DNA from: a bacterium
Lineage (GTDB): Bacteria > Ratteibacteria > UBA8468 > B48-G9 > DSTR01
Direction: 5' to 3'
DNA length: 64,000 nucleotides
Assembly: GCA_029551285.1 (NCBI GenBank)
Contig: JAKPFT010000081.1
Span: forward strand, 18,620 to 82,619
The translations under genes and the position numbers were made by a program. Of the stretch, positions 1-51,172 are shown piece after piece (positions within the stretch are counted from its first letter, which is position 1; each line of letters begins with the position of its first letter). The notes below the pieces were generated by a model. That model searched no databases. It was not told the DNA's origin and was given only the letters and a program-made list of their open reading frames with translations.

Positions 1-22
1 TCTGCCTTCACCTGTTAAACCC

Positions 23-4519: not shown

Positions 4520-5202
4520 TGTCCCCTGTTAAGCAGCCTGCCCCTGCCAGAATGTCCCGCGGGTATCTGGTAACCTTTGAAGGAATTGATGGCTGCGGAA
4601 AAAGTACTCAGGCCTTACTTTTCTGCCGCTACCTGAAAGCGAAAAAAATCCCGGTCATCCTCTTGCAGGAGCCGGGCGGAACTTTTATCGGCCAGCGCAT
4701 CCGCCGCTTGCTCCTGCACCAGCGGAAGCCTCTCACACCCTGGTGTGAACTCTTTCTTTACCTGGCCAGTCGCGCCCAGTTAGTGGAAGAAAAGGTGAAG
4801 CCAGCCTTGCTTTCCGGAAAAGTGGTAGTCCTTGACCGGCATACCGATTCCACCCTGGCCTACCAGGGATACGGAAGAAAATTACCTCTTTCCTTTATCC
4901 GGGCAGCCCACGCCTGTTTTCTCAAACGGGTGAGACCTGACCTGACCTTTTTGATTGACGCCTCTGCGGAGAAACTCTCCGGAATTCTCAGTGCTAAAGG
5001 TCGGGACCGGATGGAGCAGGAAACTCTCGCCTTCCAGAAAAGTGTCCGCCGCGGTTATTTGCACCTGGCGCGGCATGAGAAAAAACGTATCCGCGTCATA
5101 CCGCGTGAAAGTATTGCGGAAACTTCTGAGAAGATTATCAGAGAATGGGAAAGTTTCTGCCAGAAAGAAGTTTCTTCCCCGGCAAAATCAGAGAAACAAT
5201 GA
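4519..5202 (+). CDS. tmk: thymidylate kinase
   Basis: YLVTFEGIDGCGKSTQ P-loop and the DRH/LID region are typical of Tmk. An alternative start is 4552 (MSRGYLV). Confidence 0.8.
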   Translation: MSPVKQPAPARMSRGYLVTFEGIDGCGKSTQALLFCRYLKAKKIPVILLQEPGGTFIGQRIRRLLLHQRKPLTPWCELFLYLASRAQLVEEKVKPALLSGKVVVLDRHTDSTLAYQGYGRKLPLSFIRAAHACFLKRVRPDLTFLIDASAEKLSGILSAKGRDRMEQETLAFQKSVRRGYLHLARHEKKRIRVIPRESIAETSEKIIREWESFCQKEVSSPAKSEKQ

Positions 5203-6050
5203 CCCTGGAACAACTTAAATCCTTTCTTCTCCAGGCTGAGAAAAAGAACCGGCTGGCGACTTCTTATCTCCTGACCGGCGGAACTGCTTCTCTGCGGGAG
5301 CAACTGGCCATGTTTTTTTCCCAGTTGCTGGTCTGCGAAAAAGAAAGCCAAAAACCGTGCGGCCGTTGTTTAGCCTGTCGCCAGGCTAAAAAGCAACAGC
5401 ATCCTGACCTTCACTGGATTGTGCCGGAGAAGGGTAGCCTGGGTATTGACGAAGTGAGGAAGGTGAAGGAGGACATCTACCTGCGGCCATTTTCTGGAAA
5501 CCGAAAAGGTTACCTTTTTTTTGTGGAGCTGATGAAAGAGGAGGCCGCCAATTCTTTTTTGAAAATTCTGGAGGAACCACCCCTGTACGGTTCCATGATT
5601 ATTATCACCGCTAACATCCACAATTTTCTGCCGACGATTATCTCCCGGTGCCAGCCGCTGAAAATCAACTATGGTCTTCCCGAGTTTAACAAAGCCATGA
5701 AAGAAAGCCACCGGCGCTGCCTTTCTCTTCTCTCGGCGTTACAGCGGGATTCTCTCAGGTCTTTTTTTGAGGAGTTAGAGGCGCTGATAAAAAATCTTGA
5801 CCGGCAGGAGGTGGAGAAATGGCTGGAAAACATTCTCTGGCTTTATCGCGACCAGTTGCTGCGGAAACATCATTTTACCGGTAACCTCTTGCTAACCGAA
5901 GAAAGTTATGATATCCTTCAGGTAAGAGCCGACTTACTGGAAAAAACAGAGTTAATTCTGGAGATGAAGCAGCGGATAAGGCTCAACATTAACCTGAGAA
6001 TTGCGCTGGAGTATCTTTTTGTGGAACTGGCGGTACCGTCGGTAACATAA
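5199..6050 (+). CDS. holB: DNA polymerase III delta' subunit
   Basis: The gene sits immediately after tmk, the conserved bacterial order. Motifs: ATSYLLTGG, a zinc-module CxxC (CGRCLAC), and a clamp-loader AAA+ fold. Start MTLEQL overlaps the tmk stop (ATGA). Confidence 0.7.
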   Translation: MTLEQLKSFLLQAEKKNRLATSYLLTGGTASLREQLAMFFSQLLVCEKESQKPCGRCLACRQAKKQQHPDLHWIVPEKGSLGIDEVRKVKEDIYLRPFSGNRKGYLFFVELMKEEAANSFLKILEEPPLYGSMIIITANIHNFLPTIISRCQPLKINYGLPEFNKAMKESHRRCLSLLSALQRDSLRSFFEELEALIKNLDRQEVEKWLENILWLYRDQLLRKHHFTGNLLLTEESYDILQVRADLLEKTELILEMKQRIRLNINLRIALEYLFVELAVPSVT

Positions 6051-6062
6051 AAGATTTTTCAG

Positions 6063-6145
6063 CCGAAGTGGCGGAATTGGCAGACGCGCTAGGTTCAGGA
6101 CCTAGTGGAGGAAACTCCGTTGGGGTTCGACTCCCCACTTCGGCA
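6063..6145 (+). tRNA. tRNA-Leu (anticodon CAG)
   Basis: Acceptor stem gccgaag/cttcggc. D-arm, anticodon stem ctagg/cctag with loop ttCAGga, long variable arm, T-arm ggttcgactcc, and discriminator A. Confidence 0.8.
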
Positions 6146-7784: not shown

Positions 7785-7857
7785 TGGGCGGTACAGGACT
7801 TGAACCTGTGACCTCCTCCGTGTGAGGGAGGCGCTCTATCCACTGAGCCAACCGCCC
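7785..7857 (-). tRNA. tRNA-Val (anticodon CAC)
   Basis: The reverse complement gggcggttggctcagtggatagagcgcctccCTCACACggaggaggtcacaggttcaagtcctgtaccgccca folds as a cloverleaf. T-loop GGTTCAAGTCC. Confidence 0.8.
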
Positions 7858-9030: not shown

Positions 9031-12000
9031 TTAACCGATCCTGATACTGTCTTTATCAAACAAATTTCGCAGTTCTTCCAGCAGGTCCAGGGTTGGATTA
9101 ACCGAAAGATTCTTCGCCCTGATTCTGACAGCGCCGGCCCGGGGCTGGATGAGCCGTAAATAGACCGAACAACTGCCCCGATGCTTGAGACAGATACTGC
9201 GCAACGTCTCCATCTTTTCTTTGGCCACCGGTAGCACCAGAGTGACCTCCAGCTGACTGTTCACCCGTTCGGCAATAGTATTGAGACTGGCCACTTCTTC
9301 CGCTACCATCTTGGTTGCCTCCCCGCGGTGTTCAATCCTGCCCTTGACAAACACGATATTGCTTACCCGGATCAGCCCCGAAAATTCCTCAAAAACCTTC
9401 GGGTAAAAGACGACCTCCAGTTTGCCGTCAAGGTCTTCCAGTTCAATCACAGCCATCCGTTCGCCTTTCCGGGTATTCAAGCGCCGGAGAGAGGCAACAA
9501 TCCCACCCAGCCAGAGGCAGGTGTTGTCCTTCACCTGGCTGACCTGGCCGAGGGAAATCGGGCAGTAGGTGCGAAGCACCGAAACGGCTTTCTCCAGGGG
9601 ATGTCCGGTCAGGTATACCCCTAACATATCTTTTTCGTAGGCGAGAAGTTTGGCCTCCGACCATTCCGGAAGGTTTCTGATGGCCTCGTAGTTAACCCTG
9701 GGAACAATGCGGTGTTCGGAAGCGGCAAAGATAGCCATCTCACTGCCGCTGTTTAATTTCTGCACCTGATTACCGTGCTCCACCGCATCTTCTATCAGCG
9801 CAAATAATTGCGAACGGGGCATCTCCAGAAAGTCAAAGGCTCCTGCTTTAATCAGACTTTCCATTACCTTCCGGTTCACCGCCCGCAGGTCAACGCGTTC
9901 ACAAAAATCAAAGAGGGACTTGAACGGACCGGCCTGTCGGGCTTTCACAATAGAACGAATGGCTCCGGAGCCAACATTCTTAATAGCAGCCAGAGCAAAG
10001 ACGATATCGTTGCCCATGATTTTGAAGTTGCCTTCACTTTCTTCAATATCCGGCGGCAAAATCCAGATGTTCATCCGTTCACACTCGGCAATGTACTCGG
10101 CGATTTTATCGGTATTGCCGATTTCGCTGTTGAGCAAAGATGTCATAAATTCCAGCGGATGGTTGGCCTTAAGATAGGCGGTCTGGTAGGAGAGGACAGC
10201 ATAACCGGTGCTGTGGGACTTATTGAAACCATATCCGGCAAACTGCTCCACCTGCTTGAAGACATGCTCGGCTGTTTTCTCCGGGACACCACGCTGTTTT
10301 GCTCCAGCAATAAATCTCTCCTTCAACTTCTCCATTTCCTCCCGGTCCTTCTTACTCATCGCCTTGCGCAGATGGTCAGCCTCAGCCATAGTGAAATTGC
10401 TGAAATGATGGGCAATCTGCATAGCCTGTTCCTGGTAGACAATGACTCCGTAGGTACCTTTCAAAATGGGTTCCAGGAGCGGATGGTCGTACTCAACCAG
10501 GTCAGGATTCCGGCGCCTCTGGATATAAACATCCAGCGTACCGCTTTTCATCACCCCCGGTCGGTAGAGGGCTAAAATGGCAATCAGGTCCTCAAACTTC
10601 TCCGGTTTGATCTGCCGCAGCAGGTCCTGCATCCCTTTGCTTTCCAGCTGGAAGATACCAAGGGATTCTCCGCGGGAGAGAAGCTGGTAGGTTTTCTCGT
10701 CATCCAGGGGAAAATCATTCAGGCTAATCCCCTTGCGCTGTCGGACTAATTTGACCGTCTCATCAATCACCGAAAGGGTCTTCAAACCGAGGAGGTCCAC
10801 CTTCAGCAAACCGACGGTGGCTACCTGGTTCATATCAAACTGGGTGGCTGCTTCACCGGCCGCATTCTTAAACAGGGGAACATACTCGGTGACAGGCCTG
10901 TCGGTAATAACCACGCCAGCGGCATGAATGGAGGCATGTCGCGCCAGTCCTTCCAGTTTAAGAGAGATGTCAAACAACTTTTTCATTCTGGGGTCAGCCT
11001 CAACAAGATTTTTGATTTCCGGATTGTGCTGCATTTCCACCTTCAGGCTGGCCCCCGGCTCCGAAGAAATCAGCTTGGTAATTCGGTCAAGTTCTCCGAA
11101 ACTGATGTTCAGCGCCCGGCCCACATCCTTTACCACCGCCCGGGCAGCCATGGTACCGAAGGTGCCAATCTGGGCAACATTTTCCCGACCGTACTTTGAG
11201 CGTAAATACTGAATTACTTCCTCCCGGCGGTAGTCGCAGAAATCAACATCAATATCAGGCAGGGTAATCCGGTCTGGATTAAGAAAACGCTCAAAAAACA
11301 GGTCGTACTGGAGAGGATTGATCTCGGTGATGCCCAGAAGGTAAGCCACCAGACTGCCCACTGCGGAACCGCGGCCTGGTCCCACTCTGATGCCCCGGCG
11401 TTTTGCCTCAGAGACAAAATCCTGAATGATGAGAAAGTAACTGGCAAAACCCATCCGGATAATGGTCATCAACTCAAACCGCGCTCTTTCTATCACTTCG
11501 TTACTGACGCTCCTGTCCAGCACGCCATCCCAGTCAAGGTGGCATTTTTCCTTCAGACCCTGCTGCACCTGTTTCCGGAGATACTCCTCAGGGGTCAAAC
11601 CGTCCGGAGGGTGAAAAACCGGCAGGTGGTAGGTATTGAAATTCATCTGGACCGTGCAGCGTTCGGCAATTTCCAGGGTATTCTTGACCGTTTCAGGAAT
11701 TTCACTGAAAATGGCTGCCATCTCTTCCGGCGATTTGAAATAGAATTGGTCAGTGGCAAACTTCAGGTGGCGTGGGTCCTCCAGATTGGTATTGGTCTGG
11801 ATGCACAGCAGCGCTTCGTGGGCCACGGCGTCCTGTTGTCTCAGGTAATGGCAATCGTTGGTCGCGACCGGTCTGGCTCCCAGACGCCGTCCTAACTCTA
11901 TCAGCAAACGGTTTACCTGCCGCTGCTGCGGCATCCCGTTGTCCATCAGTTCCAGGTAAACATTATCCCTGCCTGCGATCTCCTGGTACCGGCCCAGAAC

Positions 12001-12474
12001 CTGAGCGGCCTTTTCCACTTCGTTCTGCGCCAGCAGGGTGGGGATTTCACCTTTCAGACAGCCGGTGAGCCAGATTAACCCGCGACTGTGCCGGCTGAGA
12101 ATTTCGCAGTCAGTTCTTGGCCGCCAGTAAAATCCTTCCAGATAGGCATCCGTGGAAAGCTCCAGCAGATGATGATAGCCGGTTTCATTCTCGGCCAGAA
12201 GGGTAAGATGAAAACAAGCCTCCTTGCTGCTGGTGGAACCGGTTTCCTTCCGGCTTCCCGGCGCCAGATACATCTCGCTGCCGATGATCGGTTTGACCCC
12301 GTGTTTGATGGCTTCCTGATAGAAGTTCACCACTCCGTGAAGATTGCCGTGGTCGGTGATGGCCACCGCTGGCATCTGGTACTGCCGGGCCTGCCTGGCA
12401 ACTTCCTCAATCCGGCACATACCATCCAGAAGGCTGTACTCCGTGTGAAGATGCAGATGAACAAATTTATTCAT
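9031..12474 (-). CDS. dnaE: DNA polymerase III alpha subunit
   Basis: 1147 aa. N-terminal PHP domain (HLHLHTEYSLLDG), polymerase core, HhH, and C-terminal OB fold. Confidence 0.95.
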   Translation of the reverse strand: MNKFVHLHLHTEYSLLDGMCRIEEVARQARQYQMPAVAITDHGNLHGVVNFYQEAIKHGVKPIIGSEMYLAPGSRKETGSTSSKEACFHLTLLAENETGYHHLLELSTDAYLEGFYWRPRTDCEILSRHSRGLIWLTGCLKGEIPTLLAQNEVEKAAQVLGRYQEIAGRDNVYLELMDNGMPQQRQVNRLLIELGRRLGARPVATNDCHYLRQQDAVAHEALLCIQTNTNLEDPRHLKFATDQFYFKSPEEMAAIFSEIPETVKNTLEIAERCTVQMNFNTYHLPVFHPPDGLTPEEYLRKQVQQGLKEKCHLDWDGVLDRSVSNEVIERARFELMTIIRMGFASYFLIIQDFVSEAKRRGIRVGPGRGSAVGSLVAYLLGITEINPLQYDLFFERFLNPDRITLPDIDVDFCDYRREEVIQYLRSKYGRENVAQIGTFGTMAARAVVKDVGRALNISFGELDRITKLISSEPGASLKVEMQHNPEIKNLVEADPRMKKLFDISLKLEGLARHASIHAAGVVITDRPVTEYVPLFKNAAGEAATQFDMNQVATVGLLKVDLLGLKTLSVIDETVKLVRQRKGISLNDFPLDDEKTYQLLSRGESLGIFQLESKGMQDLLRQIKPEKFEDLIAILALYRPGVMKSGTLDVYIQRRRNPDLVEYDHPLLEPILKGTYGVIVYQEQAMQIAHHFSNFTMAEADHLRKAMSKKDREEMEKLKERFIAGAKQRGVPEKTAEHVFKQVEQFAGYGFNKSHSTGYAVLSYQTAYLKANHPLEFMTSLLNSEIGNTDKIAEYIAECERMNIWILPPDIEESEGNFKIMGNDIVFALAAIKNVGSGAIRSIVKARQAGPFKSLFDFCERVDLRAVNRKVMESLIKAGAFDFLEMPRSQLFALIEDAVEHGNQVQKLNSGSEMAIFAASEHRIVPRVNYEAIRNLPEWSEAKLLAYEKDMLGVYLTGHPLEKAVSVLRTYCPISLGQVSQVKDNTCLWLGGIVASLRRLNTRKGERMAVIELEDLDGKLEVVFYPKVFEEFSGLIRVSNIVFVKGRIEHRGEATKMVAEEVASLNTIAERVNSQLEVTLVLPVAKEKMETLRSICLKHRGSCSVYLRLIQPRAGAVRIRAKNLSVNPTLDLLEELRNLFDKDSIRIG

Positions 12475-36467: not shown

Positions 36468-38093
36468 CTAAAAGTACATGTTCTTCGCCATGAGGTAGTC
36501 AAAATCTGCCTCCAGTTCATTCGTCCGGACATGTTCTACCCGAGCAGCGATTTCCTCAGCCGTTTGCCGGCACTCCTGACAGAGTAACATCTCCCGGGCA
36601 CCCTCCAGAGCGCCGTTACCAATCTTGACCACAAGTTGTTCCGGTACCTGCGGAATAAGACCGATGGCCATGGCGTTGGCCGTGTTGATAAAGTTACCAA
36701 AACCTCCGGAGAGATAAACATGCTTCAGGTCTTCTACCGCGGCCGGATAGTAGTGGAGAAGTATCTCCACCCCGGTTTTCATGGCCGACTTGGAGGTAAC
36801 CAGTTGAAAAATGTCCTGCTGGGTAATTTTCAGTTCTCCGTTGAGATAAAAATCATTTTCAATCCTGGCCTGCCGGTTCATCAAGCCGTGCTTTAACATC
36901 TCCGCCAGCAAATCAATCAGACCTGACCCGCAGACTCCCACCGGGTACTTGCTGCCGATGGTGCTGTAAACAACCTTGCCGTTAAGGAGCCGTATTTCCT
37001 TAATCGCTCCCTCAATGGCACCGGTGCCACAACTGACGCTGTTGCCTTCAAAGGCGCCGCCAGCCGCACAGGAAGCCGCCACCAGCCGGTCTCTGTTACC
37101 CAGGACCAGTTCTCCGTTGGTCCCGATATCAATCATCAGCGATAATTCTTCGCTCCGGTACATTTCCGAAGCCAGAATGTCTGCCAGAATATCCGCTCCG
37201 ACATGGCCCCCGATTAAGGCCGCACCGTAAATGGCTCCCTTCGGATTTACGGCCAGTCCCACCTCCGCCGGGGCTACCGTAATGGCTTCCGGGTGGACTG
37301 GCTCAAAAGGTTTCGTGCCTAAAGAAGAAACATCCAGCCCGAGAAAAATGTTGCGCATGGTGGAATTACCCACCACCACCGTATCATAAATGTACCTTTC
37401 CAGCGGTTGACCGGCCTCTGCCGACAGTTCCCGCAGACCGCTGTTGATACCTTCCACCACCACCTTCTGCAGCTGTTTCAGCCGGTGTTCTCGTTTTTCT
37501 AAGGGCAGGTACCGGTGCGTCTCCCGGTCAATCAGGGTGTATTCAATGCGAGAAATCACATCGTTACCGTAAGAAATCTGTGGGTTGGTTCTGGCCATGG
37601 TCGCCAGGATATTTCCGGTTTCCAGGTCAACCAGGTCAAACACCAGCGTCGTGGTGCCAATGTCCACGGCCAGGCCGTAAATTTTTCCGAAATAATCATC
37701 AACCTTTTTCCCCTGGTAGAAAACCTGCTGCCCACTTCTGGTGACAGCCGGAGCCATGGGTATTTTCCGTTCCAGTCCATACTTGAGAATTTCGTAGGTG
37801 CCGAACTCCTTGATGAAAACCACGATATCCGAATCATCCTTAATCACTCTGGCCTGGCAGGCTAACCGCTCCTTATCGTTCAGAGCAAACTTCTTTTCCG
37901 CTGCGGTCAGCTCGTTGAGGTTGTCCTCGCCTTTTTCTACCCGGACCACACATTTGCCGCAGACACCATGGCCGCCGCATTCAGCGTGAATTTCCAGCCC
38001 GTTATCTCTGATATAGTCAAGAATGGACAAACCCGGATGCACGCTGAACCCGGACTTGCCTTTCTTAAACTGCGGGAAAAAGATGTGTCCCAT
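36468..38093 (-). CDS. RACo-like ASKHA ATPase with N-terminal 2Fe-2S ferredoxin domain (corrinoid reductive-activase family, DUF4445)
   Basis: N-terminal plant-type ferredoxin Cys motif (CGGHGVCGKCVV...C). C-terminal actin/hexokinase-like ATPase body (DIGTTTLVFDLVD, IDIGTNGELVL). Confidence 0.7.
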   Translation of the reverse strand: MGHIFFPQFKKGKSGFSVHPGLSILDYIRDNGLEIHAECGGHGVCGKCVVRVEKGEDNLNELTAAEKKFALNDKERLACQARVIKDDSDIVVFIKEFGTYEILKYGLERKIPMAPAVTRSGQQVFYQGKKVDDYFGKIYGLAVDIGTTTLVFDLVDLETGNILATMARTNPQISYGNDVISRIEYTLIDRETHRYLPLEKREHRLKQLQKVVVEGINSGLRELSAEAGQPLERYIYDTVVVGNSTMRNIFLGLDVSSLGTKPFEPVHPEAITVAPAEVGLAVNPKGAIYGAALIGGHVGADILADILASEMYRSEELSLMIDIGTNGELVLGNRDRLVAASCAAGGAFEGNSVSCGTGAIEGAIKEIRLLNGKVVYSTIGSKYPVGVCGSGLIDLLAEMLKHGLMNRQARIENDFYLNGELKITQQDIFQLVTSKSAMKTGVEILLHYYPAAVEDLKHVYLSGGFGNFINTANAMAIGLIPQVPEQLVVKIGNGALEGAREMLLCQECRQTAEEIAARVEHVRTNELEADFDYLMAKNMYF

Positions 38094-38870: not shown

Positions 38871-39236
38871 TTACTTCTGCCCGAAATGACCGGGAACATT
38901 GGGACCGGAAGAATTTGAAAACTCTCCGGCTTTGAACTGTTCCACGGCCTGTCGCACCGTTCCCCTCACTCCAGTCACCACCTTGATGCCAGCCGCCTGT
39001 AATGTGCGAAAGGCATTTGGGCCGCAGTTACCTGTGAGCACATACTTGACTTCCTGCCCGGAGACCAGTTGAGCCGCCTGAATACCAGCACCTCCACCAA
39101 GCTCTGCACTGGTATTTTCTACGGCTTCATAGTCCAGAGAATCTGTATCCACAATCAAAAACCATCTGCAGCGGCCAAACCGCTGGTCCACCTGCTCGTC
39201 AAGACTTTTCCCGGTTGCCGTCACGGCAATTTTCAT
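38871..39236 (-). CDS. NifX/NifB-C-terminal-like protein (second copy)
   Basis: MKIAVTATGKSLD..VDQRFGRCRWFLIVDTD...KYVLTGNCGPNA. 121 aa. Confidence 0.7.
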   Translation of the reverse strand: MKIAVTATGKSLDEQVDQRFGRCRWFLIVDTDSLDYEAVENTSAELGGGAGIQAAQLVSGQEVKYVLTGNCGPNAFRTLQAAGIKVVTGVRGTVRQAVEQFKAGEFSNSSGPNVPGHFGQK

Positions 39237-41070
39237 GCTCCCTCCTTTCCTCTAAGAGATGGTTCAGTTTCGCCCAAATTTCCCTGATTGCCCGGGCCGC
39301 GGCGCCGTCACCGTATTCCACCACAATCCGACCGGCCTGAAGCGCCTGGTTAACTTCTAAATCAAAAGGAATGCTGCCCAGCACCGGAGAGTTCATCTGA
39401 CCAGCCAGAGTTTTAATTTCTTCCAACTGCCTCCTGTTGAGGTCCGCCTTGTTAATAACCACCAGAGCAGGTACCCGAAAATGTTTGGTCAGCTCCAGTA
39501 TCCGTTTAAGGTCATGAATACCTGAAACCGTGGGCTCTGTCACCACCAGGACCAGGTCTGCGCCAGAAACCGAGGCAATTACCGGACAGCCAGTACCCGG
39601 TGGACCATCCCCGAGAATGCGTCCCAGAGACAGTTCCTCAGCCAGCCGGGCGGCCCGGTGGCGCACCTGAGTAACCAGACGACCAGAGTTTTCCTGAGCG
39701 ATTCCAAGCCGCGCATGAACCATCAACCCGTGAGCTGTGTCGGAAACAAACCAGTTTCCACTGACCTCTTCCTCCAGACTGATGGCACCTACCGGACACA
39801 CCAGAGAGCACAGACCACATCCTTCACAGAAAGAGGCCTTCACCCGATAGGTTTTAGCCACGACCTCATTGGCGGGTCCATCCAGACCAATGGCGCCAAA
39901 GTGACACTGCTGCGCGCAACGACCGCAACCAGCACATTTTGCCGCGTCAATTATCGCCTTCCTGCTTCCCGAAAAAGGATGTCTTTCCAGAACCTCCGGT
40001 TGCAGGAGAAGATGAAGATCAGGAGCGTCAACATCGTTATCGGCCAGGACGGTTTCGCGGGAAAGGGCTGATAAAGAGGCCACCAGAGTTGTTTTGCCGG
40101 TACCGCCTTTACCGCTGATTACTGAAATTTCGCGATAGCCTTTTGCCTTTCCCGGCACAAAGGAAAACTTTTTCCTTTTCTTAGATGGTAATTCCTCAAT
40201 CCGGGGCATCTCAGGGAGCTTTCTTTTCCGCAGGAGCTTGATTTCCTCAAAAATTTTCAGCAAATCTGCTGCAAGTTCCTTATGATGTTCAATCAAAATC
40301 TTACCCCGGGCATAGGTCTCGGCATATTCCCTCCGGAAAGGTATCCGGCCAATAATGGGCATGCCTGTTTCTTCGGAATACCTGGTGATCAACCTATCCT
40401 GGCCATCGGATCTATTGACTACAATGCCGGTGGAAACTCCCAGGCTCACCGTCATGGCGGCTGCCAGACTCAGGTCGTTGAGTCCAAACGGCGTCGGTTC
40501 CGTTACCAGCACCGCAACATCAGCATGCTGAACGGCTCTGACCACCGGACAGGCAGTTCCCGGTGAAGCATCAAGAATATTGATTGCCCCGGCCATAATC
40601 TGCTTCTTGACCGCTTCCACGACGATGGGCGCCAGGGTCTCCCCAATATTCAACAGCCCATCGGCGAAGAAAAACGGCTTGTGGTCTGCAGCCACCCTGA
40701 CCCTGCCAATGACCACCTTTTCTTCGTGCAGGGCCTTCTGGGCACACACGCAGGAACAGACACCGCAGGCGTGGCAGAGTTCGTTGAAAATGAGCAGTTT
40801 TTTCTTGACGACGGCGATGGCGTTGTAGTGACAGGCCCGGGCACATTGGCCGCAGGCAATACACCGCCGCTGGTCCCAACGAGGCTTCAAGACGGCAACA
40901 GGTTTTTCCTCAGTGTAACGCGGTTTTACAAAGAGATGGCCGTTGGGCTCCTCCACATCACAGTCCAGAAGGCGGACCGAATGGTTCTTTCTAACCAGGG
41001 CATACGCCAGGTTGACGGCAAACGTTGTCTTACCGGTGCCACCTTTACCGCTGGCCACAGCAATGGTCAT
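39199..41070 (-). CDS. tandem MinD/ParA-type P-loop ATPase fused to 4Fe-4S ferredoxin domains (duplicated module)
   Basis: Two deviant Walker A boxes (VASGKGGTGKTT; ISGKGGTGKTT). Each is followed by a CxxCxxC...C ferredoxin-like cluster (CIACGQCARAC, CHACGVCSCVC; CAGCGRCAQQC, CEGCGLCSLVC). Start chosen at MTIAVAS; the ORF runs to 41127. Confidence 0.75.
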   Translation of the reverse strand: MTIAVASGKGGTGKTTFAVNLAYALVRKNHSVRLLDCDVEEPNGHLFVKPRYTEEKPVAVLKPRWDQRRCIACGQCARACHYNAIAVVKKKLLIFNELCHACGVCSCVCAQKALHEEKVVIGRVRVAADHKPFFFADGLLNIGETLAPIVVEAVKKQIMAGAINILDASPGTACPVVRAVQHADVAVLVTEPTPFGLNDLSLAAAMTVSLGVSTGIVVNRSDGQDRLITRYSEETGMPIIGRIPFRREYAETYARGKILIEHHKELAADLLKIFEEIKLLRKRKLPEMPRIEELPSKKRKKFSFVPGKAKGYREISVISGKGGTGKTTLVASLSALSRETVLADNDVDAPDLHLLLQPEVLERHPFSGSRKAIIDAAKCAGCGRCAQQCHFGAIGLDGPANEVVAKTYRVKASFCEGCGLCSLVCPVGAISLEEEVSGNWFVSDTAHGLMVHARLGIAQENSGRLVTQVRHRAARLAEELSLGRILGDGPPGTGCPVIASVSGADLVLVVTEPTVSGIHDLKRILELTKHFRVPALVVINKADLNRRQLEEIKTLAGQMNSPVLGSIPFDLEVNQALQAGRIVVEYGDGAAARAIREIWAKLNHLLEERREHENCRDGNREKS

Positions 41071-41249
41071 GCTTATTTCCTCCACGGGCAGCCGGCAACC
41101 GGTTTCTCCGTCATCTGCGGGAAACAACTGAATGGATACCTCACCTTCGCCACTTATGTGGCCACAGTTTCCTCTCTTTCTAACAGAGCCGTTGCCTGCT
41201 GGTCTAACCTTTTCTTCCGTGACTTATTTTCTCTCTGTTGATGCGCTCT

Positions 41250-47204: not shown

Positions 47205-48115
47205 AATTGTTGTTCTCCGGTGATTAAAGAAACGATTGTTTCCAGAAGGCTGAAGTAATCCCTAACTTCGGGAGTACCTCCCACGGAATTGGGAAAGACA
47301 ACCACCCTGGCCCCGGTCTCCCGGGCCACAAAATCAGCCGCTTTTCTGTTATAAAAGACCTCCTGCAGGATTAGACCAACCTTTTCCTTTTTCATCAACT
47401 CCACGACCCGGGAAAGATGCGCCGGTCCAGGAGGAATACCAGGTTTTGGCTCCAGTTCCGCCACAATTTTCAGGGGAAATCTCCGGCAGAAGTAAGAAAG
47501 ACTGCGGTGGTAACTGACCGCTTTCACTTCGCCCAGTTTTTCCATCTTTTTCTGGCACCAGGCTATCAGCTCATCAATCCTGCGCTCAAATTTCTTCAGA
47601 TTGGCCTGGAAAAAATCACTGTCAGCTGGGCAAATAATACTGAGCCGTTCTGCAATCTGTCTGGCTATTAAGCGGCCATTTTCCGGGTCAAGCCAGTAGT
47701 GGGGATTACCCAGCGGGTGGACATCTCCCATAGAAGCATCAACCCTGGCACCAGAAGGCAGCACCTCTAATTTTTTTATCGGTCCGGAAAGGTCAAGAAA
47801 ACCAGTTTTACCCGTGTTCACCTTTGGATTCCGGGCCGCGTCAATCAGCGAGTAAACCCAGATGTCCAGGTCCAGCCCCACGGCCAGAACCAGGTCTGCC
47901 TTCCTGATTTTCACCACCATAGAGGGTCTGGGCTCCACAAAATGAGGGTCCTGCACCCCGGTAATCAGGGAAACTACCTCCACCCTGTCCCCGCCTATCT
48001 CCCTGGCGATTGAGGCCATGTCAGAAGTGGTGGTGACAACATTTATTTTCTCAGCCGAGGCTAAACCCACACACAGAGCCAGTACCGTCACCAGTAAAGT
48101 TATCCGCTTCATCAT
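47201..48115 (-). CDS. znuA: metal ABC transporter substrate-binding protein (ZnuA/TroA family)
   Basis: Signal peptide, then the TroA-like fold (VVTTTSDMASIAREIGGDRVEV...HPLGNPHYWLDP). Confidence 0.8.
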   Translation of the reverse strand: MMKRITLLVTVLALCVGLASAEKINVVTTTSDMASIAREIGGDRVEVVSLITGVQDPHFVEPRPSMVVKIRKADLVLAVGLDLDIWVYSLIDAARNPKVNTGKTGFLDLSGPIKKLEVLPSGARVDASMGDVHPLGNPHYWLDPENGRLIARQIAERLSIICPADSDFFQANLKKFERRIDELIAWCQKKMEKLGEVKAVSYHRSLSYFCRRFPLKIVAELEPKPGIPPGPAHLSRVVELMKKEKVGLILQEVFYNRKAADFVARETGARVVVFPNSVGGTPEVRDYFSLLETIVSLITGEQQL

Positions 48116-48181
48116 CCCTCCTTATCTGACTATTGTTTCTGTCAATGGTTTTGCAACTCCTTATCGCCTTTCCTCCTCCAC

Positions 48182-48434
48182 TGTCAGAAAAGGAAGGGAA
48201 TAACTGGCGAACGAATTGCGAAGGCACAGTTACAAGACAAGACGAAAAGCGGATGCGCTCGGTAAGCGGACCGGACAATTCCATCCGGGACGCAATACCT
48301 TACTCGGCGGTGTTTGAGCTCGCCCCCGGGCGAGCGAGTTCGCCGAGCAACCGATTTCGGCGTAGTCCTTGTCTGTGCCGGAGCATTCTGAGTGAGCCAG
48401 TTTGTTCCCTTTCTTTTCATTCCTCTTTTATTCC
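48182..48434. repeat. copy 1 of tandemly duplicated ~253-nt structured element (candidate ncRNA/riboswitch-like leader)
   Basis: Copy 1 is near-identical to copy 2 at both ends. The middle diverges, but the local hairpins are preserved (ccgga-N8-tccgg; gctcgcc-ccc-ggcgagc). Confidence 0.6.
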
Positions 48435-48481
48435 TTCTTTGGTTCTGCCTGTCCTTATCTCTCTCCCTATCCTTCCCAGTG

Positions 48482-48734
48482 TGTCAAAAAAGGAAGGGAA
48501 TAACTGGCGAACGATTTGCGAAGGCACAGTTACAAGACAAGATGAAAAGCGGATGCGTTCGGTAAGCGGCCCGGATAAGTCTAACCGGGACGCAATACCT
48601 TACTCGGCGGTGTCTGAATTCGCCACCTGGCGAATGAGTTCGACGAGCGACCGATTTCGGCGTAGTCCTTGTCTGTGCCGGAGCACCTTGAGTGAGCCAG
48701 TTTGTTCCCTTTCTTTTCATTCCTCTTTTATTCC
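48482..48734. repeat. copy 2 of tandemly duplicated ~253-nt structured element
   Basis: Period is 300 nt. Hairpins cccgg-N10-ccggg and attcgcc-acct-ggcgaat occupy the same positions as the copy-1 hairpins but use different stem sequence, i.e. compensatory changes. Confidence 0.6.
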
Positions 48735-49607
48735 TTTTTTGACACTATCCTTTTCTGTTATTGCTCCTAATCCCCGGCAAACCTCAAGGAGCGCTTCCTT
48801 CAGATATCCGTATTTTCCGCCGAACACGGCCTTACACTGTTCTATGGAAGATGCTCCTTCGTAAACCTTGCAGGCAAAAGCCGTGCAGGTTGGCTCTCCG
48901 CAGGCCCGGCAGTTGGTCCGGGGAAGACGTTTCAAAATCTCCAGGGCCGGCGGCCTCTGGCGCAAGGCGTCCGAAGGTTGAATGGTTGCCCGCTGCTGCC
49001 AGACGCGATTTACCTGGTAGCGAATCATCTCCAGAACCCGCCAGGCATCTACAATCTCATCAGCCCTGGCGACGGTAATCCGTCGCGGAGAGAGAGAAAT
49101 CATCCGGTAGCCGTCCATAAATGTCAGCACCGGAGCGCTTTTTATGTAGGACGCCGTTTCCATAACCGCGTTCAGATAAGGAAAAACCTCAGCCATATCT
49201 CCGGTAATGTGGGCGATGAGCCGGATCCGGGTCTCATCGGCCACGCACGGCGCCAGCACCATGATTGCTGCCCGGCCAAAAACATCTTCAGAGAAAATTG
49301 GCGGTTCCTCGTCAGGGACAGGTCTCTCAGTGGGACGATATTCTACCCATCCGGAACAGGTGAGGTCTCTTTTTTCTCCAAGAAAATCCCGGCCTTCATC
49401 GTCAACAACTAAGGCTGGCGCCCCTACCAGCCGATACTTAGGTTCTGGCCGGATCACTTCCGCGGCCAGAGCCGCCTGTTCTAAACCCTTCAGCGCCATT
49501 TCAAAGGCCTGTGAATCGGGAAAGGTTGTCAGCCACCGTGTCATAACTGTTTTCCTCAACCCGGCTGTTTTTCCCCGCCGGGAAAGAAAAAACACTCTGC
49601 CAGGCAT
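48717..49607 (-). CDS. protein with C-terminal Fe-S cluster domain (PF04060-like C-x2-C-G-x2-T-C-x4-C...C)
   Basis: CRACGEPTCTAFACKVYEGASSIEQC lies at the C-terminus. N-terminal region of unknown function. The start may be at MTRWL (49544). Confidence 0.5.
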   Translation of the reverse strand: MPGRVFFLSRRGKTAGLRKTVMTRWLTTFPDSQAFEMALKGLEQAALAAEVIRPEPKYRLVGAPALVVDDEGRDFLGEKRDLTCSGWVEYRPTERPVPDEEPPIFSEDVFGRAAIMVLAPCVADETRIRLIAHITGDMAEVFPYLNAVMETASYIKSAPVLTFMDGYRMISLSPRRITVARADEIVDAWRVLEMIRYQVNRVWQQRATIQPSDALRQRPPALEILKRLPRTNCRACGEPTCTAFACKVYEGASSIEQCKAVFGGKYGYLKEALLEVCRGLGAITEKDSVKKGIKEE

Positions 49608-50795
49608 TCATTTCACCAGCCACCCGAAGACAAGACCGGTGACCGTAGCCATGACAACCACCAGCGTCACATAAACAACCGTTTTCTTCGTGCCCATGAT
49701 ACTTCTGAGGACCAGCATGCTGGGCAAACTCAATGCCGGCCCAGCCAGAAGAAGGGCCAGGGCCGGGCCGTTGCCCATTCCGGAACCGAGCAAACCCTGA
49801 AGAATGGGAACTTCGGTCAATGTAGCAAAGTACATGAAGGCGCCCACAATGGAAGCGAAAAAATTGGCTCTCAGAGAATTCCCGCCGACCAGAAACATTA
49901 CCAGCCTTGAGGCAATAAGCCCCTCGTGTCCCGGCCGGCCCAGAAGTATCCCGGCCACAAAGACACCGGCAAAGAGCAAAGGGAAAATCTGTTTGGCAAA
50001 ACCCCAGGCGCTGCGTACCCATTCGGCCAGTTCCTCTTTCCGGAACCAGGCCTTGAGGACCAGGAGAAGTAATACGAGAAAACCGGCGGTGAGCATCCAC
50101 TTGATGCGAAAAATAAATAGCCAAAGGCCGGAACTGTTACCCTTTGGCGAGGCCCAGTTGGCAAAGACAAGAATCCCGACCAGAGCGGCAAACTGAAGCC
50201 CTGTCTGCCACAGGGGGTGCTTCTCCTGTTCGCCGGCCAGCACCAGGTCTCCCTCATTTTCTCTGGAAGTTTCTTCCTTCAGAAAAAGCAAATGCATCAG
50301 CAGACCGACCACCACGCTGAAGACGACCGCGCCCAGCGCCCGGGCCAGCCCCAGTCTCCAGCCCAAAATGCGCGCGGTCATGATGATCGCCAGCACATTA
50401 ATAGCCGGGCCAGAGTACAGAAACGCGGTGGCTGGACCCAGGCCGGCTCCCCGACGGTAAATTCCGGCAAAAAGTGGCAGCACCGTGCAGGAACAGACTG
50501 CCAGGATGGTCCCGGAAACTGAAGCGACACCATAGGCCAGAATTTTGTTAGCCTTCCGGCCAAAGTATTTCAGAACAGAAGCCTGGCTGACAAAAACGGC
50601 GATGGCGCCGGCAATAAAAAAAGCCGGCACCAGACAGAGAAGAACATGCTCCCGGGCGTACCACTGGAGAAGCAGCACGGCTTCGGTCAGAGGATTGGAT
50701 ACTGAGAAGCGGAAAGGAAGGAAATAAAAGAAGAGGAAGACCGCCACCATCAACAGAAACTTCGCTCGTTCGGTTCTGTACCAGGCCATGTTCAC
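49608..50795 (-). CDS. ArsP-like DUF318 permease (second copy, longer)
   Basis: AVCSCTVLPLFAGI motif (compare FPVCSCGNIPV at 42877..43899). About 10 TM helices. Located directly downstream of arsR. Confidence 0.65.
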   Translation of the reverse strand: MNMAWYRTERAKFLLMVAVFLFFYFLPFRFSVSNPLTEAVLLLQWYAREHVLLCLVPAFFIAGAIAVFVSQASVLKYFGRKANKILAYGVASVSGTILAVCSCTVLPLFAGIYRRGAGLGPATAFLYSGPAINVLAIIMTARILGWRLGLARALGAVVFSVVVGLLMHLLFLKEETSRENEGDLVLAGEQEKHPLWQTGLQFAALVGILVFANWASPKGNSSGLWLFIFRIKWMLTAGFLVLLLLVLKAWFRKEELAEWVRSAWGFAKQIFPLLFAGVFVAGILLGRPGHEGLIASRLVMFLVGGNSLRANFFASIVGAFMYFATLTEVPILQGLLGSGMGNGPALALLLAGPALSLPSMLVLRSIMGTKKTVVYVTLVVVMATVTGLVFGWLVK

Positions 50796-51172
50796 CTCTG
50801 ACAGAGTTTTTTCCGGTCAGCCAGCTTAGCTTTTTTTTCATCCTGCCTCAGTCTGGCATCAACCATGGTTAGAGCGGTTACTGTTTTTAGAAGAGGATTA
50901 AGCCAGTGGTTCTTCGGATAGAAACAGAGACGATAATCGGTCCATACCCCGTTGGTCTGGTCTTCAATCAACCCGGCTTGTTTCAGCGCCTGCAAATGGC
51001 GGGAGACCGTTGGCTGAGCAATACCCAGCACAAAGCGCAACTCACAGACACACATCGGCCTGGCCGCCAGCAACTTCAGAATCCGAATGCGGTTGCGGTT
51101 AGCCAGTGCCTTGAACACCCGTTCTGCTTCTCCCAGAGAAACCGCTCCGGGCCTGGATAGCGATATAGCCAT
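50792..51172 (-). CDS. ArsR/SmtB family metalloregulator
   Basis: HTH with metal-binding CVCEL motif (LAARPMCVCELRFVLGIAQPTVSRHLQAL). Confidence 0.8.
   Translation of the reverse strand: MAISLSRPGAVSLGEAERVFKALANRNRIRILKLLAARPMCVCELRFVLGIAQPTVSRHLQALKQAGLIEDQTNGVWTDYRLCFYPKNHWLNPLLKTVTALTMVDARLRQDEKKAKLADRKKLCQR

Follow-up and report, generated by a model that had tools for sequence, protein, structure and literature searches.

A probable new MITE-like repeat family with a constrained structured core at operon junctions of an uncultured Omnitrophota-related bacterium

The stretch of DNA analysed here (64,000 nt, hereafter the window; contig JAKPFT010000081.1 of assembly GCA_029551285.1, positions 18,620 to 82,619) carries a tandem repeat array within a series of minus-strand genes. 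Their order is arsR, a gene for an ArsP-type permease, a gene for a PF04060 FeS-domain protein, the array, znuA, znuC, znuB, a Fur-family regulator gene and a DUF5320 gene. The array and the dispersed repeat family to which its units belong are the subject of this study. Positions are those of the window, and further contigs and loci are denoted by L numbers. On the minus strand, 48115 is the start of znuA (PF01297) and 48717 the end of the open reading frame (ORF) for the FeS-domain protein, and a 243-aa ORF on the plus strand and two 78-aa ORFs on the minus strand exist over the array. This gene context is as described in an earlier note on the same DNA, in which the array had been proposed to be a tandem riboswitch-like leader for the zinc-uptake operon or a pair of small RNAs (sRNAs).

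The tandemly duplicated units with a 300-nt period that the note had placed upstream of znuA were recovered with Tandem Repeats Finder as a single array at 48182-48741 (1.9 copies, 91% matches, 0 indels, score 966). The true repeated unit comprises the full 300 nt including a CT-rich leader, and homology spans the two units from 48133 to 48749 (plus strand), with nhmmer matches at 48142-48441 and 48436-48741 and the terminus GATAGTGTCAAA at 48749. Unit 1 (48142..48441, plus strand) consists of the CT-rich leader (48142-48181), a structured core (approximately 48187-48422) and a U-rich tail. According to its folds and a consensus structure on 45 copies, the core forms a long closing stem P1, a stem P2 and a junction with three to four hairpins. 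Unit 2 (48442..48741, plus strand) is 91.5% identical to unit 1 (92% column identity in the pairwise alignment), with the differences crowded in the centre, as the note had stated. The units meet at ...CCTTCTTTG followed by GTTCTGCC..., which is the usual internal junction of arrays in this family. No further copy of the unit was found in the 64-kb window.

Compared with single elements elsewhere, the array is complete on the side of the FeS gene and truncated on the side of znuA, where most of a module termed U and the terminal repeat are missing. The terminal inverted repeat on the upstream-gene side occupies 48735..48749 on the plus strand (TTTTTTGACACTATC; inward on the other strand GATAGTGTCAAAAAA). 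At the opposite end, alignment of the 5' flanks (rows L001 and window versus L008, L019, L044 and others) reveals a module U remnant, TTGTTTCTGTCAATGG, at 48133..48148 (plus strand). In complete elements this region is preceded by about 45 more nucleotides and by the second terminal repeat GGTTCTGTCAAAG, and because both are deleted at znuA the window copy is probably immobile. The start codon of znuA and its Shine-Dalgarno sequence GGAGGG (48113..48122, minus strand) lie outside the element and directly adjoin its truncated end. An identical copy of unit 1 stands beside znuA in the independent contigs L001 and L061, and unit 2 stands beside the FeS gene at 100% identity in L002-L007. Since L003, another assembly of this locus, has at least three units after the FeS gene, the two-unit array of the window may be collapsed.

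The hairpins quoted in the note are present in both units. On the plus strand, the tip of hairpin H2 reads CCGGA(48271-75)-caattcca-TCCGG(48284-88) in unit 1 (48271..48288) and is built from cccgg and ccggg in unit 2 (48570-48589). The tip of H3 reads GCTCGCC(48318-24)-CCCG-GGCGAGC(48329-35) in unit 1 (48318..48335) and ATTCGCC-ACCT-GGCGAAT in unit 2 (48618-48635). That the stems had been rebuilt from different nucleotides stands for H3, where two true double (compensatory) changes separate the units, but in H2 the 5 bp are kept only via the shift of one pair. Both units beat shuffled controls on both strands, with -114.7 kcal/mol (z -5.6) on the plus and -105.4 (z -4.3) on the minus strand for unit 1, and -98.0 and -87.4 kcal/mol, respectively, for unit 2.

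The unit is widely dispersed. An exact look-up of the FeS protein led to six contigs, most of which break inside the repeat, and 69 metagenome contigs, all from a few anaerobic-digester data sets, carry the conserved 21-nt pattern GGCGTAGTYCTTGTCTGTGCC; many of them end inside the repeat, and up to four matches lie about 299 nt apart. Profile searches gave 105 unit matches and 47 unique full-length units, and the sequences adjoining one terminus sort into 47 distinct flank classes (at least 47 sites). The homologous copies thus found reveal a mobile repeat. Its neighbours are unrelated genes, including ispH and a GGDEF gene (between which the copy in L008 lies), ribH/mutL, thioredoxin, genes of sulfatase and glycosidase clusters, 5S rRNA and znuA. 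The element occurs singly or in arrays of 2 to at least 5 units, and three-unit arrays with both flanks fully assembled are found in a 33-kb and a 64-kb contig, with ribH and mutL as neighbours in one case and a sulfatase/transporter cluster as surroundings in the other. A copy near a 5S rRNA gene comes from a second metagenome-assembled genome (L009; 80% identity, H2 and H3 rebuilt). In L009 (1150-1290) and L016 about 100 nt separate the end of the copy from a downstream promoter with a perfect TTGACA-N18-TATAAT and the 5S rRNA gene, both recognised by eye, and this 5S gene appears unlinked because no 23S rRNA stands in front of it.

In contig L002 the FeS gene is joined via the repeat to a thioredoxin/arsenate-reductase cluster and not to znuA. 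Compared with L062 (5790-6093) and with window 48133-48749, this 33-kb JGI contig has at 4868-5471 a junction of the FeS gene plus unit 2 with the single element known from other contigs upstream of a thioredoxin gene. The junction reflects either chimeric assembly or genuine recombination via the repeat.

No copy was detected in phage and plasmid collections (BLASTN at 'distant' sensitivity), in viral contigs and GTDB representative genomes (transition-tolerant 36-nt pattern scan), or by nhmmer in the dnaE surroundings of 80 GTDB genomes, a total of 1.58 Mb to which the two closest relatives (DnaE 76-77% identical) contribute. The host is an uncultured Omnitrophota-related bacterium from anaerobic digesters; it occurs in the digesters sampled as JGI 3300009654, 3300009712 and 3300010338 and ENA ERZ795045/46/60. 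The nearest relatives of its DnaE (window 9031-12474, minus strand) are from the uncultured bacterium CAZYCA01 (77%) and a Candidatus Omnitrophota metagenome-assembled genome from Tibet (76%), and Ratteibacteria DnaE proteins are 55-57% identical to it.

A complete single element is 356-360 bp long and frames as GGTTCTGTCAAAG...TTTTGACACTACC, with terminal inverted repeats GGTTCTGTCAAAG at one end and GGTAGTGTCAAAA (inward) at the other that are conserved across loci. Read on the window plus strand, it opens with GGTTCTGTCAAAGAC and the remainder of module U, which totals about 52 nt and ends in CTGTCAATGG, continues with TTTTGCAA and a CT-rich leader of variable sequence and length, and then with CACTGTCAAAAAAGG, the 235-nt core, to which a pyrimidine-rich tail is joined, and CCCTTTCTTTTCATTCCTCTTTTATTCCTTTTTTGACACTACC. 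The terminus at 48735..48749 of the window matches, in inverted form, the GGTTCTGTCAAAG at the opposite end of single elements; it is conserved as ...TTTTTTGACACTACC, and outside it the flanks diverge at the 47 loci. Target duplications of 8 bp were found exactly at the terminus, with 8/8 matches in L014 (TCATGGTT) and L044 (AAAAGTGC), 7/8 in L019, L021 and L052, and 6/8 in L036, L040 and L077. At each of these loci the duplication scores highest of about 143 possible positions compared with the 8 nt beyond the opposite end, and with random sequence the best of 143 positions scored 8/8 in 2 of 2000 trials.

Because of its inverted-repeat termini, its 8-bp target duplications and the lack of a conserved ORF, we regard the element as a non-autonomous transposon resembling the miniature transposable elements with inverted repeats known as MITEs. 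According to our analysis, which is computational throughout, the array is best explained by a new MITE-like family with IS6/IS256-like ends that sits at operon junctions in fixed orientation, forms arrays and carries a strongly constrained 235-nt fold, and we assign this explanation a probability of about 0.75. The arrays have periods of 297-302 nt and internal junctions of the form ...CCTTTTTTG followed by GTTCTGCC..., at which module U and the complete end are absent. They are probably not recent local duplications, since array neighbours are not mutual closest relatives; in the window, unit 1 is closest to the single element in L019 (95.2%) and unit 2 to a unit in L029 (96.1%).

The dispersal of the unit also bears on both functions that the earlier note had suggested. 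A pair of sRNAs specific to this locus does not fit a dispersed unit with terminal inverted repeats and 8-bp target duplications. A riboswitch-like leader or other metal-sensing cis-regulator of the znuACB operon would be in keeping with the location, as the array immediately precedes znuA among genes of metal homeostasis (arsR, ArsP permease, FeS protein, znuACB, zur), and with a structure that shows compensatory changes. Yet the same element stands upstream of at least 19 unrelated genes and at the 47 or more flanks without any single downstream functional class, and since the repeat occurs at so many places beside unrelated genes it is not a zinc-sensing leader. The copy at znuA is truncated, the host Shine-Dalgarno sequence is set apart from the element by the duplicated target, and both the G·U/A·C asymmetry and the minimum free energies (MFE), described below, favour the strand opposite znuA. 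An Rfam search of the locus on both strands at permissive E-values returned best matches with E of at least 1.8, far below gathering scores, so that the note's failure to match it to a known RNA family is borne out. Taken with the terminal repeats and target duplications, we consider a zinc riboswitch at this locus extremely unlikely.

The placement of the element relative to genes is strikingly regular. In all 34 contig instances its module-U end is next to a gene start, with transcription of that gene leading away from the element, and in 47 of 59 the opposite end borders on the 3' end of a co-directional gene. At 19 distinct loci, anchored on the element end, the first 8 nt beyond that end, i.e., the duplicated target, are free of any consensus, and a Shine-Dalgarno G is found at +14 in 17/19 and the start codon 21-24 nt from the element end in 16/19. 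One end of the element lies about 5 nt upstream of the Shine-Dalgarno sequence of the next gene, always in one orientation. An ACAGG context ahead of the Shine-Dalgarno sequence is common at element-adjoining genes but uncommon among the other genes of the window (7 of 55). At its opposite end the element provides TAG, TAA and TGA in all three frames within 33 nt, and a long upstream ORF runs into the element and terminates at +5, +19..22 or +33 in 23 of the 47 distinct loci. The FeS ORF of the window accordingly ends in an element-encoded stretch (48717..48749, minus strand; last 10 codons DSVKKGIKEE plus TGA), and IspH in L008 (7972-8004) shares the tail …KKGIKEE*. Owing to the three-frame stops and the spacing before the Shine-Dalgarno sequence, both neighbouring genes stay intact: the element takes up the minimal spacer of closely packed genes, and the two genes remain usable. 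The fixed offset could reflect target choice or selection in very short intergenic spacers.

At sites between divergent genes (L160 8955-8983; flanks of L040/L051 and L069), the gene on the terminal-repeat side keeps its own canonical promoter just outside the element, for example CTGGCA-N17-TATAAT ahead of mutL in L160, and the gene on the module-U side is separated from any upstream promoter by 0.36-0.9 kb of repeat.

We then consider the core. The consensus structure from 45 distinct copies contains 68 pairs, which form P1 as the long closing stem, P2, and hairpins H1-H4 at the junction. The proposal that an RNA structure is under selection was confirmed: 99.5% of pair cells in the 45 copies are standard pairs, compared with 36-43% in slid controls, and double-sided changes occur in 7 pairs (54 cells, a count inflated by recombination among copies), which was matched by 0/500 shuffles. 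In H3 (columns 199-216 of A2), 17 copies show the double changes GC/AU and CG/UA, and 5 copies have GCCCAC/GUGGGC as a third form. In H2 (columns 135-171 of A2), GC is replaced by AU at 143/163 in 6 copies, and a long-H2 subfamily shows GC>CG and CG>UA at 135-136/170-171. A divergent subfamily copy at L160:14288-14512 retains this junction but closes it with a P1 rebuilt entirely in unrelated sequence (GGGAAGAUUUC/GGAAAUCUUCCC); with an nhmmer score of 99 versus about 350 for the others, it is the sole such copy in the fetched data.

Paired core columns have a mean pairwise difference of 0.053 and are invariant in 74% of cases, versus 0.164 and 42% for unpaired core columns and 0.373 and 2% for the leader. 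Within the unpaired core, the junction sequences are invariant and the loops and bulges exist in three to four alleles. Statistically, purifying selection on the core is strong and acts on it in the form of a folded single strand. As a MITE requires only its ends, this pattern of constraint indicates a sequence- and structure-specific role of the core.

The pairing further distinguishes the strands. On the window plus strand, 22 pair columns contain G·U and 3 contain A·C (304 versus 5 cells), and single-sided stem changes nearly all preserve G·U pairing there and become A·C mismatches on the other strand. In P1, for instance, about half of the copies have GACAGC instead of AAUAAC facing an unchanged GUUUGUUC. 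The plus-strand MFE is lower in 47/47 copies (mean -109.3 versus -96.6), and composition does not explain the bias because the G+U content is 50.8%. With RNAalifold the consensus of the reverse strand is weaker (-57 versus -80 kcal/mol), and its G·U columns are mostly invariant register shifts. By these statistics the favoured strand is antisense to all flanking genes. The core is probably an element-borne RNA on the antisense strand, a putative transcript, and it does not look like a ligand sensor.

Such a strand preference would also be expected if each 300-nt unit were a plus-strand gene of a multicopy sRNA family serving the host, with mobility incidental or ancient. The leader would then be the promoter region, the core the RNA and the U-rich tail after P1 its terminator, with arrays as tandem sRNA genes. 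The strong purifying selection on the core relative to the leader, the G·U asymmetry, the arrays of diverged units and the anti-Shine-Dalgarno-like CCUCC motifs in the CT-rich leader all agree with this proposal, which is the main rival to a transposon. However, the leader is variable in length and has no conserved promoter, no canonical terminator was called on the plus strand, and the 5-nt Shine-Dalgarno placement, the three-frame stops and the terminal repeats with target duplications are properties of insertion elements. We therefore judge a host-serving family to be unlikely. With regard to an expression platform for znuA, the scan called no terminator that uses the long closing stem; on the gene-sense strand it called only a small 5-bp terminator-like hairpin inside the core, which is no commoner than in shuffled sequence.

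Strand-asymmetric pairing, with G·T tolerated, might instead mark a site that folds as single-stranded DNA for recombination or transposition, similar to integron attC sites or palindromic elements derived from IS200/IS605. The strict orientation to genes, and hence probably to replication, would suit such a site, and the position between a stop codon and the next ribosome-binding site recalls cassette boundaries. But 8-bp duplications of variable sequence and inverted repeats at the termini speak for a DDE transposase with double-stranded DNA as its substrate, and no conserved target tetranucleotide, attC R''/R' core sites, nearby integrase or Y1 transposase was found. Genes co-oriented with replication would moreover be expected to expose the gene-sense strand as lagging-strand template, and not the favoured strand. 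A single-stranded DNA site hence appears very improbable. The specific comparison with integron attC also failed on the ends, which do not fit RYYYAAC/GTTRRRY, and on the neighbours, which are housekeeping genes on dozens of contigs.

That the ORFs over the array encode small or repeat proteins is scarcely credible. They are open, the 78-aa frame is kept in 29/47 copies, and at two loci, those of FeS and ispH, its ATG shares letters with the upstream TGA (ATGA). In the remaining 18 of 47 unique copies, though, this frame is broken or its ATG missing while nucleotide conservation persists, array periods of 297-302 nt break the frame, and variable sites fall in RNA loops, where they give radical residue changes. 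Among 5.8 billion proteins the 78-aa ORF has two relatives only, each a translation of another copy of the same repeat (those in L008 and L009), and there was no Pfam match. Four NCBI-only proteins are translations of the repeat as well. The earlier description of the repeat as non-coding is thereby upheld.

Several observations weigh against the transposon explanation or its parts. Some target duplications are degraded, and the three-unit array in L160 has none. No transposase gene with matching ends was found in 408 kb of loci from this population, nor were there orphan ends or inverted GGTnnTGTCAAA pairs around a transposase gene in these loci. The strand test is built on related, recombining copies, and L002_X, L012 and L076 have hybrid H3 stems. 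Scans did not find a consistent sigma-70-like promoter inside the element on the favoured strand. They gave one 10/12 outward match, in module U of L160, and none in the window or L008, so that neither an outward nor a plus-strand promoter can be claimed, although the organism does use canonical TTGACA/TATAAT promoters (L016, L160). The fixed Shine-Dalgarno distance could come from selection in very short intergenic spacers and not from target choice. Finally, every copy derives from one or two closely related populations in few digesters.

For the MITE-like element, we posit that a DDE transposase moves it in trans and leaves 8-bp target duplications. A putative autonomous partner would have GGTWSTGTCAAA ends. 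The 300-nt units of leader, core and tail have been assembled into arrays, probably via recombination or end-targeted integration between copies, and the array at znuA is one of these, truncated on the znuA side and without specific relation to zinc. The core is probably a structured RNA working for the element; it might, for instance, insulate or process transcripts running across the element, or regulate the transposase. It is, in our view, doubtful that the 235-nt core is a true, antisense-expressed RNA gene of a DDE-type MITE that acts in the biology of the element itself; its possible roles would include directing or licensing insertion 5 nt upstream of Shine-Dalgarno sequences, control of the transposase and insulation of operon transcripts.

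MITEs are recognised by terminal inverted repeats and flanking direct repeats in the absence of a transposase gene (PMC3184786), and our element shows terminal inverted repeats, target-site duplication, small size, no transposase gene and 47 dispersed flanks. Known bacterial MITEs (Correia/NEMIS of Neisseria, ERIC, RUP, Nezha and Chunjie of Geobacter) are likewise non-autonomous, intergenic and dispersed, with sizes up to about 400 bp and very stable RNA folds. Chunjie, for example, is flanked by duplications of 9 bp, its RNA is predicted to fold with about -98 to -130 kcal/mol, and protein genes are overlapped by several of its copies (PMC3184786). Unlike in those MITEs, the interior of our element is not just a long hairpin made by the ends but a multibranched core of 235 nt, in which the junctions are invariant, the loops hypervariable and the stems marked by compensatory changes, and the element has a fixed Shine-Dalgarno offset, strict orientation and arrays of 300-nt units.

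The bcr1 repeats of the Bacillus cereus group are mobile, have short flanking direct repeats, are transcribed and show compensatory changes that maintain RNA structure (PMC3184786). Our element resembles them as a mobile repeat with flanking direct repeats and compensatory base-pair changes. Neisseria REP2 repeats lie directly upstream of genes and carry a promoter and ribosome-binding site (PMC3184786); there the ribosome-binding site is inside the repeat, whereas next to our element it is the host's own, separated by the target duplication. A Porphyromonas gingivalis MITE contains a minisatellite (PMC4596501), a short repeat inside one MITE, whereas here the whole structured 300-nt unit is repeated.

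With respect to the ends, the IS6 family has 8-bp duplications, GG tips, a cTGT...caaa motif and known MITE derivatives (PMC7986276), two of which, of 227 and 336 bp, are listed in ISfinder; tandem amplification and integration beside a resident copy are also described (PMC7986276; PMC8477213). Our element shares with IS6/IS26 the 8-bp duplication, GG tips, TGT at positions 6-8 and a subsequent A-rich run. Assignment to the IS6/IS26 family was nevertheless not made, as position 10 of GGTTCTGTCAAAG is A and not the conserved G of the IS26 end GGCACTGTTGCAAA and no Tnp26-like transposase was found; the array junctions also differ in lacking a complete end. Since the position-10 G is absent and the ends are equally close to GGCAGTGTAAATA, the end of the IS256-family ISCth4 (both reference ends from PMC8477213), we label the element only as having IS6/IS256-like ends. 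In sum, it probably represents a new MITE family that has a conserved structured core and is without Rfam, phage, plasmid or GTDB-representative match. Among repeats with a similar genomic position, mycobacterial interspersed repetitive units (MIRU) are variable-number tandem repeats between operon genes, oriented with transcription, whose ends overlap the flanking stop and start codons. Their units of about 50-100 bp are not known to have terminal repeats, target duplications or a complex fold, unlike our element.

Further candidates were discarded. Hammerhead-like motifs (CUGAGUGA, GAAA) spotted by eye were dropped as no Rfam ribozyme matched, and a CsrA sponge was rejected because GGA motifs are not conserved in the loops. 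The hypervariable loops cannot each encode a target of a guide RNA, since about 10 alleles face at least 47 targets. REP/BIME sequences are GC-rich palindromes of 20-40 nt and not 300-nt units, and no RAYT gene lies nearby.

Elsewhere in the window, Rfam matches at gathering score comprised only two tRNA genes (6062-6145, plus strand; 7785-7857, minus strand). A RACo-type corrinoid activase (Fer2 and RACo; 36468-38093) and a CbiA/ParA-4Fe-4S fusion (39199-41127), both on the minus strand, are unrelated to the array. At 48717-51172, next to the array, lie arsR, the ArsP_1 permease gene and the PF04060 'FeS' protein gene. Homologues of the PF04060 protein are annotated by JGI as 'ArsR family metal-binding transcriptional regulator', and the closest non-self homologues are just 63% identical (Omnitrophica, Planctomycetota, Brocadiia).

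For the znuA locus, our results remove a false lead, as there is no new zinc riboswitch. For genome reconstruction, the repeat family breaks metagenome assemblies of this lineage, with contigs that end inside it and at least one 33-kb contig that looks chimeric across it. If the core were a true RNA gene of the element, the family would represent an RNA-bearing class of cut/copy transposon aimed at translation-initiation regions. Should the unusual features be borne out (insertion at a constant distance from ribosome-binding sites in one orientation, built-in stops in three frames, and a strongly constrained multibranched core with strand-specific pairing), the family would illustrate a way for transposons to settle in the minimal gaps of operons while sparing the genes, and it would provide a candidate transposon-borne structured RNA in a poorly studied, Omnitrophota-related phylum.

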